NCBI GenBank assembly: GCA_020137815.1
Contig: CM035354.1
Coordinates: 5,270,001-5,334,000, forward strand
DNA length: 64,000 bases
Direction: 5' to 3'
Origin: Hormiphora californensis
Lineage: Eukaryota > Animalia > Ctenophora
Part shown: positions 1 through 54,495 of the stretch, one piece after another
Position numbering within the stretch: position 1 is the first letter of the stretch
Layout of the letters: every line of letters starts with the position of its first letter
Program-made: the position numbers and the translations under genes
Notes under the pieces: generated by a model
The model's database searches: none
Seen by the model: the letters and a program-made list of their open reading frames with translations, nothing else
Told to the model about the DNA's origin: nothing

Positions 1-748
1 TGAGAGATGGAGTACTAAATGAGAGGTAGGGAAGCTGAGAGATGGAGTAAATGGGAGGTAGGGAAGCTGAGAGATGGAGTGAATGGGAGGTTGGATAGCT
101 GAGAGATGGAGTAAATGGGAGGTAGGGAAGCTGAGAGATGGAGTAAATGAGAGGTAGGGAAGCTGAGAGATGGAGTAAATGGGAGGTAGGGTAGCTGAGA
201 GATGGAGTAAATGGGAGGTAGGGAAGTTGAGAGATGGAGTAAATGGGAGGTAGGGAAGCTGAGGGATGGAGTAAATGGGAGGTAGGGAAGCTGAGAGATG
301 GAGTAAATGGGAGGTAGGGAAGCTGAGAGATGGATTAAATGGGTGGTAGGGTAGCTGAGAGATGGAGTGAATGGGAGGTAGGGTAGCTGAGAGATGGAGT
401 AAATGGGAGGCAGGGATGGAGTAAATGGGAGGTAGGGAAGCTGAGAGATGGAGTAAATGGGAGGTAGGGTAGCTGAGAGATGGAGTAAATGGGAGGAAGG
501 GAAGCTGAGAGATGGAGTAAATGGAAGGTAAGGTAGCTGTGAGATGGAGTAAATGGGAGGTAGGGAAGCTGAGAGATGGAGTAAATGGGAGGTAGGGAAG
601 CTGAGAGATGGAGTAAATGGGAGGTAGGGTAGCTGAAAGATGGAGTAGATGAGGGGTAGGGTAGCTGAAAGATGGAGTAGATGAGGGGTAGGGTAGCTGA
701 GAGATCGAGTTGATGAGGGGTAGGATAGCTGAGAGATGGAGTAGATCA
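1..748. repeat. Minisatellite, 32-bp unit (GGGAGGTAGGGAAGCTGAGAGATGGAGTAAAT), roughly 23 copies, truncated at the window edge
   Basis: Unit directly visible in tandem; it explains ORF 15..755. Confidence 0.95.
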
Positions 749-2686: not shown

Positions 2687-3022
2687 CTAATCGAAGAGAG
2701 AGAATCCCATGTCATCATCAGACTCCTCTTCCTCGCTTTCCTCCTTCTTGGCCTCCTCAACAGGGGCAGCAGCAGCACCTCCGGCAGCGGCGGCACCTCC
2801 AGAGGCAGCAACACCACCACCTGATGGTACACTGGCAAGCTTCTCAGATCCAGCGGCTAGAACCTCGTTGATGTCCTTGCCAGACAGCTGGGCCATGACG
2901 AAGGCGAGTTTCTCGTCGTCAACGCCAACTCCGACACTGGAGAGGATGGCCTTGATGTCAGCATCAGAGGGAGATTCGTTTCCACCGAGGGCAGCGAGCA
3001 GGTAAGCAGCAACGTAACGCAT
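2687..3022 (-). CDS. RPLP2: 60S acidic ribosomal protein P2, intronless CDS
   Basis: [16 protein letters not shown]-terminus, Ala/Gly hinge and C-terminal [14 protein letters not shown] motif. Confidence 0.98.
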
Positions 3023-5082: not shown

Positions 5083-5753
<671 letters not shown>

Positions 5754-5971: not shown

Positions 5972-8900
5972 TTACTGCCTATTTTTAGCGGGTTCTAGTA
6001 TTCCAATCAGCTCCTCGACACTCGGCGGGTTATCCCAATCGATGTTGCACGCTTCCAGCTTAGATTTTGCTGCTTTGAAACTCAAGGTGGCGTATTTTAT
6101 AGGAGCAGGGAATTCGATCACCCTGAAAAGAGTAAATCATTTGTGATTCATTGAAAAATATCATTATCAAGCTAAGGGGAAACTCTAACTGAATGGCATC
6201 CCATTAATGGGATCCCATCAGCAGTAAAACTCTAACTGATAATGGACCACAGTGATGGTTCTTTCACATTTAACATATGAAAAAGAAACAAGAAGTTGAG
6301 ATATACCTAGTGACTCGTGGGTCACAATGACAGAGGTAGAAAGAGAGCATTTCCCATTCGTCAATGGTAAACTTGCTATCGTCGTGGAGAATTCTATAGC
6401 GACCAGGAAGCCAGCTACTACTAGGATCTATGGAGTTTTTAGGTGAATTTCAAATCGTATCTAACCCTGTCTGGCGGCGCCAGACCCCAATTTGATTTGC
6501 GCTCAGATGGGTCGCGGCGCCAGACAGATCTAACCGGAATCTTAAAAGTAAAAACAAGTGTCGTCCTAAAAATAGAATTCATCGAATCAAAACTTCGAAG
6601 AAAAAAGTGTTGCTGCTTAGATTACAGTTCCAAATTTATTCTTCGCCTAATCTAAATAGGGTAGCGACTGGATATTTGAAATGGCGGCTAATTTGAAGCA
6701 CCCCTTCTACAGGCCAGCAGGTGCACCAGATTTGGATTTCTAGACATCAGTGGGCTAGTCAGAACTTTGGTAACATAGACACCTGGCGCGGGGGTCGCGC
6801 CAGGTGTCTATGTTACCAAGTCAGAACTCATGCCAAGCCCACTGATGTCTAATTCTAAAAATCCGAATTCAAATTACTGTAAAACTAGATATTTTCGAGG
6901 CAATTAATTTTCGCGATTCGATCAAAATTTACTATTTTCGCGATTTTAATTTTCGCTAATCCAACTGCTACCCCCATTTCACGGTCCTAGTCTATTGTCT
7001 AATTACGCCAAGAGTGCAGTCATCATTGCCATGAGACACCAGACCTGCTTGGCGTAGACCAATGAAATGTGAGCATTTTCTCATTGCTGATTGGCTCTAA
7101 GAGATAGCCAATCAGGGATGAGACAGAAAAGGCTCACATCTCATTGGCTTACAACTCCTACTGAATCCCTTGCCACGTATAAGAGCAGTGGTCACATGAC
7201 CATTATTAATATAACACTCCTAGGGGTTAGGGTTAGGGTTAGGGTTAGCTTTCTGTAAAAAATCATCCAAAATATTTTCGCGGAATTAATTTTCGCGGAT
7301 TTTCCAGCCAAAAATAAAGAGCGAAAATAAAAATCTCACGAAAATATCTAGTAGTGTCTGACTGTGGTCTGGAAACCCCCTACTGCACGGAGCTTTTCTG
7401 AATCACCTTTTCGAGACGAATCCAACGCAACCGGAATTAGCTTTCTATCTTATCGGGAAGTTTGGGCTTGGGCCCCTTCAATTTTAGTCATTTTTTGGTG
7501 CGCGAGCCAATCAGAGGCCTTTATTTCGAAATCTAGGCCTCTGATTGGCTCCCACACCGAAAAATGACCAAAAATGAAGGGGCTCAAGCCCAAACTTCCC
7601 GATAAGATAGAAAGCTAATTCCGGTTGCGTTGGATTCGTCTTGAAAATGTGATTCAGAAAAGCTCCGTGCTCCTAGGGGGTTTCAGACCACAGTCAGATA
7701 TTATCTAGTTTTACAGTAGCCGCCATTTCAAATAGCCATTCGCTACCCTAATCAATAAGTGCCACTCACTTCCAGAGTAAAGAAAGAATTCCATGTAGTA
7801 AGGCGATGTAACTCCGCTGTCCACAACTGTTCCAGAATCAACCTTTCTTCCATCAACCTTATCAAAGTACTGCTTATGTGATCGGCGAGAGAACATTACA
7901 ATAGAAATTAGTGGCTGATTCGAGGCATCTTCTTGATATATACCCAAACAGGCGTCACGGATCTCTTGGAGTTCAGATTCAAAATTACCTCGTGAAACAA
8001 CGGCCCTTGCTATACGAAATTTGGCCGCTCTACCCCGCTTGATTAGATCATCGATTTTGGGATCCCAATAGTAGCATATAATCCTGTTTGGCAGCATTTT
8101 TTCCTTTCTTTGGTATTCCACCGGCATTTCTTTTACAATGTTACCAAGTCCTTGTATGTACTCAATTATCTGACCATCGGCATCCGGGAAAATCGGTAGA
8201 ACTCGATTGATATAACGTCCAGAATTTATATTTTTCGATGAACAACCCACAACCGTAGCGATTGAGGGCATTCCACGAAATTCAGGAAAGTGAGTAAGCT
8301 GCGCTCCAAAAATGAGGGTCTGTTCGTTGAAAACTGCACGAGGGATGCCTTCTGTATTTTGGTTGACTGTCCAATTAGTGCCACCCATCTTAAGGTTAGT
8401 TTTCTTCAGTATATCATGAAGAATCAGCTTTGGGTCATTATGTTTTCCGAAGATTCGTTCATATCTAACAACCTTTTCCACTTTTTCAATTGTTATGCAT
8501 TGCGTGATTTTACCATCTTTTTCACACATTTTGATTTTTCCAAAGTAGCTCGGGTCAGGCATTATAACGTAGTTAAAGTTTGTTGGAGACGACTCGATGG
8601 AACTCTGGAGATCTTCAGTTCTAATGCAGACACAATCCTGTGCTTGGTCTAATATTCCCATTCCTAAATCGTTAGCAAAACTCACCAGTTTTCGAATGAA
8701 TTTGTTGATGACAAATGTCATTGGTAGATCCACAAGATAAACAGAAAACCGGCCATCCTTAATACAATGGGAAAAGTTTTGCATTCTCCAAGTTCCAGCT
8801 TCACTCACATTCTTTCCATCGATAGTAAGACTAGGGAGGACCCTTCCCTTAACTCTGATATCCATAGGTGTTATATCTATGAACGAGTTAACTGTTCCTG

Positions 8901-8994
8901 GTTCTCCGATGGTACGCAAGGTCCTTGAAATGAGTTCAACTGAAGTTCCAATGGTTCCAGTAGCAGGCTTATATCCGGCAGCACCATCAGCCAT
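5972..8994 (-). CDS. Short Argonaute-family protein (L2-MID-PIWI only, no N/L1/PAZ), 3 exons, 498 aa, predicted slicer-inactive
   Basis: Exons 8994-7770, 6427-6307 and 6122-5972, all GT-AG and phase-consistent (1225+121+151 nt). Motifs: L2 VKGRVLP..GTWRM; MID TQCI and KKTNLKMGGTNW; PIWI IFGAQLTH, PSIATVVG, GTVVDSGVTSP..EFFLYS, YRILHDDSKFTIDEWEMLSFYLCH, RVTRVIEFPAPIKYA. AATAAA lies ~75 nt after the stop. Confidence 0.92.
6657..7750. mobile_element. Nested cluster of inverted-repeat elements (MITEs) in Argonaute intron 1
   Basis: Outer TIR TAGGGTAGCGA.TGG.TATTTGAAATGGCGGCTA at 6657-6690 and 7717-7750. Inner elements: 6877-7716 (TA TSD), ~7353-7701 (palindromic, flanked by TATCTAGT) and 6767-6819 (9-bp TSD GTCAGAACT). 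Confidence 0.9.
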
Positions 8995-9185
8995 AGTTTG
9001 TTTCAGTGTTTGAGGGTAGAAAACACTGAAACTAAAAAAACAAAGAGGTGGCTTCTTACTCAACAACACCAATGATAAGGAGGTGTACGCTGTCAACATA
9101 TTTATCCGCAGAAAAGTTTTTCAGTTGTAAGGTTTAAGTCATGCAACTTGAAGCCAACCGACCTCTGTCTCGTGGCGCCAGACCC

Positions 9186-9271
<86 letters not shown>

Positions 9272-9282
9272 AAGACAGACAA

Positions 9283-9335
<53 letters not shown>

Positions 9336-9464
9336 ACAGAACAGAACAGAACAGAACAGACAGACAGAACAGAACAGAACAGAACAGAACAGAACAGAAC
9401 AGAACAGAACAGAACAGAACAGAACAGAACAGAACAGAACAGAACAGAACAGAACAGAACAGAC
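9186..9464. repeat. Compound microsatellite (GACA)n followed by (AGAAC)n
   Basis: Directly visible. Confidence 0.97.
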
Positions 9465-10487
9465 ACTTTTGTCTATGTTGAACCAAGGCTATGGCGCCGC
9501 GACCCCACCTGAGCGCACTGTCGCGCTCCAATTTGAGAATCAAATGGGGTATGGTGACGCCATGCAGAACCAACCGATACAACCTTGGTTCAACCATTAC
9601 CAAGGCAACCGATACAAAAGAAAACAAGTCTCATAACTGGGAAGAAATAATTCGTTAACTTAACTAACACAGCTTAATACAAACAGATATATTTCTCCTC
9701 TCACACGTCTATAACACCTCTCGTGCACTACTGGATGCACCAGATCTAACCAATGATGGCATAGTTTTAATTTTGTAAAAATAAACTGCATTAACGCGTA
9801 GTGTTACAAAAAATCCTAGAACTCAGTCGACACACACAGATATATAGCTGAACAAGCATTTTATCACCAGAGAGATATATATTTTCAGGTTAATAAAGGG
9901 GTTGTATAATCAACAAAAACATGACTAAAATTCTCTAAAAATGATATACGTTTTAAAAAAGAATTGAGAGAAGAATTATCCACTGGTTCTTTATGAACGT
10001 ATGTGTGTGTCTCAAACTACTGAGCACTAATCGGAACACATTGTCATAACACATTTACAAAAGTTTTATAATAAAAGAGACCGCACGGTATATATTGTTA
10101 TCAGTATTACCGTATTATAATTATTATGACTATTTACAGTTGTATACAAAACTTGTGGATAAAATTTACCACGCACGATATATATAATAACCTTGTCTTC
10201 TTCAGATATCGACATCCCTCACTTTATATTTAATAGAAGCAGAAAGAGTGAATCAAATCGAGGAGGAAATGGGTAATTCCAATCTTCATTCGATATGGTA
10301 CCATCCTTCATTGACTCCAGCTCCCATCTCTGTGAAGTATAAACTAAACAACTTACAACACTCGCTCAAAGCGTCTTTTTGTCTCTCTCGCTGCCACTTG
10401 CATAATATCATCATTGTCCCTCGCGTGATATATCATTGGTCAAATCACATGGCCTGCTATATTGTAACTACAACGTGTGTTGGACCC

Positions 10488-54495
<44,008 letters not shown>

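Follow-up and report, generated by a model that had tools for sequence, protein, structure and literature searches.

A minus-strand gene in the 64,000-nucleotide stretch of Hormiphora californensis DNA analyzed here (the window) encodes a short Argonaute (AGO) of 498 aa, in which a beam strand is joined directly to the end of L2 and is followed by MID-PIWI. The slicer tetrad is broken, the side chains of the guide 5'-phosphate pocket are kept, descent is from the AGO3/4 lineage, and the reading frame is intact in two species. We give roughly even chances to the reading that this one-lobed AGO holds 5'-phosphorylated small RNAs by their first nucleotides and does not slice, acting as a competitor, buffer or tether beside a long AGO.

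Gene model and layout of the short Argonaute

The gene has three exons (8994-7770, 6427-6307 and 6122-5972; all features of the gene given below are on the minus strand), and this model is the sole in-frame GT/AG combination with a GTGAGT donor. Exon 1 (7770..8994) holds codons 1-408 plus 1 nt and covers the beam, the junction, distal L2, MID and most of PIWI; it is an open reading frame with a GTGAGT donor at 7769, matched in tblastn by residues 1-417 of the Pleurobrachia bachei protein P0001 (80% identity) and by Pfam Piwi (4.9e-22), with the PAZ, N and linker families all absent. Exon 2 (6307..6427), carrying the remodelled GTSRP loop and the LCH..R792 segment, is in frame with a GTGAGT donor and is matched by P0001 residues 417-458 (76%) and Pfam Piwi (2.9e-4). 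Exon 3 (5972..6122) was placed by the in-frame splice model and P0001 residues 455-504 (84%), and encodes the H807 to T replacement, the final helices, the polar C-terminus and the stop. An AGO had been placed at 6080..8560 by an earlier, sequence-only reading; the AGO is there, and that span omitted the first ~145 codons (the beam-to-L2 junction) and the two introns. Alternative splice sites (GC or GTGGCA donors) fitted P0001 and the second P. bachei protein, P0002, less well, and the introns rule out a retrocopy origin. The P0002 gene model reads through the same donor-like spot as the exon 1 end.

Inverted repeats are nested within intron 1 (6428..7769). They comprise a palindrome of 352 nt at 7352-7703 (arms of 176 nt, 89%), a perfect hairpin of 24 nt at 6767-6819, and 41-nt arms at 6657 and 7750. 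It also holds four telomere-type hexamers (GGGTTA units at 7224-7248), and the repeats look like nested MITE-type elements. Compound ACAG/ACAGAGA-type microsatellites stand on both sides of the gene (5083-5753 and 9186-9465), and window positions 1-743 are a minisatellite with 23 copies of a 32-bp unit. On one side of the gene lies a DIP2-like gene and on the other a ribosomal P protein ORF. The DIP2-like gene (PF23024) is multi-exon, on the minus strand, with its 3' end at 10488 and above, ~1.5 kb from the AGO ATG; the other neighbour is an intact, intronless 111-aa 60S acidic ribosomal protein ORF at 2687-3022 on the minus strand (Pfam 1.7e-25), a gene or a retrocopy. A pyrimidine tract with two AG (9026..9046), 32-38 nt before the ATG, is a possible splice or trans-splice acceptor as judged from its letters. 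Trans-splicing is known in ctenophores, and given the acceptor-like site the DIP2-like gene and the AGO gene could be an operon-style, trans-spliced arrangement.

The beam strand (residues 9-25, 8920..8970) is the sole remnant of the N-terminal part. A beam profile built from 60 long AGOs had its best match at residues 9-23, its score on P0001 was reached by 2 of 2000 shuffles, and the beam region aligns with the N-terminus of P. bachei AGO3. The distance from the beam to the GRVLP strand (end of L2) is 24 residues, versus 351 in P. bachei P0004, and this spacing defines a junction (8860..8919) that replaces N, L1, PAZ and proximal L2, indicating that ~327 residues were deleted internally from an AGO ancestor. 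This start and junction recur in P0001 and P0002. The canonical long-AGO layout (N, L1, PAZ, full L2) is thus absent. When the window was translated in six frames, none of the 2661 segments matched an N-L1-PAZ profile (best E 0.5, against 1e-115 for the control), an N-PAZ profile did not match P0001 or P0002, and the junction region alone had no significant match among PDB sequences. None of 18 unrelated representatives of 380-620 aa carried a beam in the first 60 residues. Since the long AGOs called as single ORFs (P0005-P0007 and P0012) extend from the N region to about the intron 1 site, we infer that the deletion arose within one large exon. A homologue search among longer proteins (1141-3255 aa only) found nothing. 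One protein search returned no N-PAZ-only protein, a weak negative result, since it also missed P0001 and P0002, both of them in the query.

The fold was predicted on the orthologue P0001 in place of the window protein, with AlphaFold and a 112-row alignment. The model (pLDDT 85, pTM 0.88) is a compact MID-PIWI lobe with the beam strand (17-25) at high pLDDT and with low confidence at the junction (28-41, pLDDT <50), the insertion loop 326-343 and the last residues. In Foldseek the best match was the uni-lobed human AGO2 map 9k6r (TM 0.73); 5THE, the isolated C-terminal lobe from yeast, was also matched (TM 0.69, E 2.6e-27). A single-sequence prediction reached pLDDT 32. The model leans on long-AGO homologues, so it shows fold compatibility, not stability.

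Active site and guide-binding pocket

Residue numbers of human AGO chains (PDB) were carried through the 112-row MID-PIWI alignment (MAFFT), which left out representatives >1100 aa, small fragments and sequences with odd ends. The dead active site (8002..8301) has Q232 at D597 (codon 8301-8299), E278 at E637 and A331 at D669, and T461 stands at H807 (codon 6088-6086). The alignment bears out the sequence-only reading for D597, H807 and the retained E637. The same reading had D669 as probably retained in a YYWD motif, and this part falls: MAFFT and BLASTP versus P. bachei AGO3 both align RAVVSRG with RDGVAEG, giving A331, and the YYWD aspartate sits inside a basic insertion of ~21 residues that immediately precedes the D669 position (8008..8070, after IICY), present in P0001 and not in P0008. 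Read ungapped from the left, the D669 column is W310; one HMMER alignment of P0001 matches a D to D669, though it needs a gap to do so, and a displaced aspartate may lie near the position. P0008, without the insertion, has T at this position. The tetrads are QEAT in the window protein, QEVF in P0001 and NRTY in P0008, compared with DEDH/DEDD in 91 of 99 comparison AGOs (a hand-trimmed set) and DEDH in both relatives complete through the tetrad. No DEDH/DEDD tetrad was restored by the multiple alignment, and the protein is likely non-slicing; the loss goes beyond what had been claimed, with three of four tetrad residues replaced here and all four in P0008.

The MID 5'-phosphate pocket codons (F151, K155, Q165, K198 and K202; 8389..8544) were assigned by alignment to AGOs. 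The side chains K533, Q545, K566, K570 and R792 are retained as K155, Q165, K198, K202 and R446, and Y529 is replaced by F151 with loss of the hydroxyl, all as previously read by eye. All short members covering the positions keep K533, Q545, K570 and R792, have F at Y529 and K or R at K566, and remain basic at K709 and R795; no short member that covers Y790, S798, Y804, R714 and H753 retains these residues. We take R714 and H753 to have guide-binding roles. All 6 pocket positions are unchanged or conservatively substituted, versus 10 of 26 conserved polar positions elsewhere (one-sided Fisher p=0.009), with the conservative classes set after the data were seen and the rows related; counting identity only, the contrast is not significant (4/6 vs 8/26, p=0.12). 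Roles of guide-contacting residues are described in PMC4390867, PMC5737567 and PMC9262622.

The protein ends in AKNRQ, a polar end in place of the aromatic tail, as had been noted from the sequence, and the polar end stands at the same point in P0001 and P0008. An aromatic C-terminal tail is found in 121 of 141 unrelated AGO representatives and in the long relatives P0009 and P0010. The C-terminal carboxyl takes part in 5'-phosphate recognition according to PMC9262622, and this component of the pocket appears displaced. The earlier claim of a kept guide 5'-phosphate pocket thus holds for the side chains and not for the apparently displaced C-terminal carboxylate or for several seed contacts, which are lost: in alignment the pocket has its side chains kept and its lid altered. 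The GTSRP arginine (R761) is indeed lost, as claimed, and is not special to the short AGO, since the tetrad-intact P0009 and P0010, together with the P. bachei fragment P0017, carry V at the position; the alignment indicates that this loss is older than the short family, and we discarded it as a specific feature. The long AGOs of the clade (P0009, P0010 and P0017) have GTSVP or GTGVP for GTSRP and no R812, a clade-wide trait of tetrad-intact proteins.

These data leave a real, if minority, chance that the product is a functional protein of AGO fold which no longer binds guide RNA and acts as a scaffold, decoy or small phosphorylated-ligand binder, with the lysines serving structure or the ligand. 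The C-terminal tail, four seed contacts (Y790, S798, Y804 and R714) and the PAZ anchor are all gone, each of which may count against guide binding; P0001 is net acidic (pI 5.95, versus ~9 for two long AGO C-halves), and a lone MID domain binds weakly, with nucleotide binding only at 0.1-3.6 mM (PMC9262622). Against the loss of guide binding stand the invariance of K533, Q545, K570 and R792 and the basic K566, K709 and R795 in members only 51-61% identical, the net basic charge of the window protein itself (pI 8.3), and the finding that an engineered lobe still loads guides (PMC9262622).

Descent, selection and relation to known systems

Among 3945 candidate proteins of 224-714 aa, three were relatives, all from P. 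bachei: P0001 (504 aa), P0002 (403 aa) and Argonaute 4. P0001 is 82% identical over 495 aligned positions, colinear with all three exons, and has the same Met start, layout and length; P0002 also has the short start (61% identity). A search of 1.84 billion representatives gave 1499 matches, and P0008 and P0013 were added from the best 150. P0008 (281 aa, on a 1464-nt contig) reads through both intron sites, as expected of either a spliced transcript or an intronless copy. P0013, from P. bachei, covers a C-terminal part and may be the end that P0002 lacks.

The four short proteins, including the window protein, form one clade (FastTree 1.0, 53 rows; IQ-TREE 100/100, 19 rows, without the fragments P0013 and P0017), and their sister is P. 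bachei AGO3/4 (P0003; IQ-TREE 98.6/100, FastTree 0.82), in trees of AGO rows only, with no PIWI or pAgo rows. The stem branch of the short clade is long (0.72-0.75), a point against the RNA-binding reading. PDB sequence matches were stronger to AGOs (1e-11 to 1e-25) than to PIWIs (1e-6 or weaker). Sequence, fold (Foldseek) and nesting among long AGOs in the trees all place the protein in the eukaryotic AGO clade. The deposited P. bachei 'Argonaute 3' (P0004, AEX15553.1) leaves the AGO frame after ISVVVCTK, at about residue 675, and is identical upstream to 'Argonaute 4' (P0003); P0017 looks like its true C-terminal part, and the two names may stand for one gene. Our literature searches showed no description of a PAZ-less ctenophore AGO, though these models may be mentioned in the 2014 paper on the Pleurobrachia genome or in its supplements; PMC4971632 lists one Mnemiopsis Ago-like gene without domain detail.

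It is unlikely that the short proteins are a young duplicate family under relaxed selection, drifting towards pseudogenes. Both stem and terminal branches are long, the dead-site residues differ in each paralogue, P0002 and P0013 are incomplete models, and no transcript was seen in the single RNA run X1, with zero cover of the AGO exons, a run matching the neighbouring region mostly at <90% and hence uninformative. Differences from P0001 were not significantly rarer at AGO-conserved columns (23/165 vs 34/165, p=0.14). Decay is opposed by two species at 82% identity sharing open frame, start, stop and canonical introns, with five length differences and none frame-breaking: in a neutral simulation (3000 runs) to this identity both copies stayed stop-free in ~1% (P about 0.011). 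Three independent sequences also end at the same point, and 49 of 67 conserved fold-defining columns are kept.

Among the closest known systems is P. bachei Argonaute 3/4 (AEX15553.1, AEX15554.1) of the eukaryotic AGO clade, the sister lineage, at 39% identity over L2-MID-PIWI. It shares the beam and pocket residues and has N, PAZ and D, E and D at the first three tetrad sites, whereas the window protein is missing ~327 residues, the aromatic tail and three of the catalytic residues. The engineered MID-PIWI lobe of Kluyveromyces polysporus Ago1 (PDB 5THE) has a beam piece fused, as in the window protein (PMC9262622, PMC10772731); the yeast construct is reported as artificial, catalytically active and promiscuous, whereas the window protein is natural, tetrad-dead and without the seed contacts and C-terminal tail. 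The trypanosomatid PIWI-like protein of Leishmania is likewise a eukaryotic Argonaute-family member with no PAZ, but differs in size (133 kDa), DDH motif, C-terminal hydrophobic residues, a mainly mitochondrial location and separate lineage, as reported in PMC3528672. The Argonaute-like module of MED13, an ancient and very large Mediator subunit, is an inactive eukaryotic MID-PIWI reused as a scaffold, with no evidence of relationship to the window protein. Among AGO clusters of the ESM Atlas, three Ascomycota clusters (73-103 members, 431-454 aa) have a Piwi domain and little else, possibly fungal short AGOs or gene-calling fragments.

A parallel to the catalytically inactive short pAgos had been proposed from the sequence. 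It stands for architecture: short pAgos (SPARTA, SPARSA, SPARDA), the split long-B AfAgo and Asgard HrAgo2 are reported to have MID with inactive PIWI and no PAZ, and an adjacent APAZ or N-L1-L2 partner, often with an effector (PMC10954474, PMC11217426). It does not stand for ancestry. The window gene is spliced, sister to an animal AGO at 39% identity, adds its own beam and distal L2 to the inactive MID-PIWI, and has housekeeping neighbours, with no adjacent APAZ or N-L1-L2 partner or effector gene within the window, so that it falls outside the prokaryotic short-pAgo clade and the likeness is, on these sequence grounds, convergence and not membership. A partnered arrangement like that of AfAgo and short pAgos, with an N-lobe or effector supplied in trans and triggered by RNA binding, is very unlikely: the protein shares its dead PIWI and missing PAZ with short and split long-B pAgos, which need an N-L1-L2 partner (PMC10954474), but its own beam and distal L2 point to an internal deletion and not a split, and neither the six-frame N-L1-PAZ search of the window nor the neighbouring genes offer a partner. 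An artefact of gene model or assembly, in which the true gene has upstream N/PAZ exons, is highly improbable, since against the acceptor-like site before the ATG and a 5' end without cover in the uninformative run X1 stand a beam, itself an N-terminal AGO element, sharing one open frame with L2, the same junction in two P. bachei models, and only ~1.5 kb without N/PAZ signal between the ATG and the DIP2-like stop.

Proposed role and meaning

In the proposed non-slicing, RNA-binding role, a comb-jelly AGO would have been duplicated, and one copy would have lost the N-PAZ lobe by internal deletion, plus its cutting residues. The product is predicted to form a stable MID-PIWI lobe, like its engineered yeast counterpart; an isolated MID-PIWI lobe was stabilized only after a beam piece was fused, and the beam-fused lobe binds targets but cleaves mismatched RNA (PMC9262622). 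As a lone lobe cuts mismatched RNA, loss of catalysis may have been favoured, and this cause of lost catalysis has been proposed for short AGOs (PMC10772731). As a low-fidelity binder, the short protein would use its K/R residues to hold 5'-monophosphate small RNAs by their first few nucleotides; it would neither anchor the 3' end nor measure length, and the seed would be loosely ordered. Since ctenophores are without miRNAs, its ligands would most likely be Dicer endo-siRNAs; in Mnemiopsis miRNAs are reported absent and endo-siRNAs abundant (PMC3563456, PMC6211395), and PMC6211395 also describes, for Mnemiopsis, an unexplained 25-nt small RNA class. Instead of cutting, the short protein would be a competitor of the long AGO that slices, or a buffer or tether for it.

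It is conceivable by analogy, though quite improbable, that an animal lineage has re-invented the short-Argonaute sensor, in which a dead one-lobed AGO loads RNA and target binding signals via a separate partner; if true, it would act as short pAgos do in bacterial immunity.

The narrow known range limits the general importance of the finding. In published descriptions eukaryotic Argonautes have two lobes, and the short dead forms are prokaryotic. The protein encoded here, conserved in a second species, appears to be a natural half-Argonaute in an animal, where the half-Argonautes we otherwise found were reported only in prokaryotes or as engineered proteins. As an independent case it agrees with the published idea that loss of the N-PAZ lobe forces loss of slicing (PMC10772731), and at ~500 aa it provides a natural scaffold to ask what guide binding needs without PAZ, the seed clamp and the C-terminal carboxylate.
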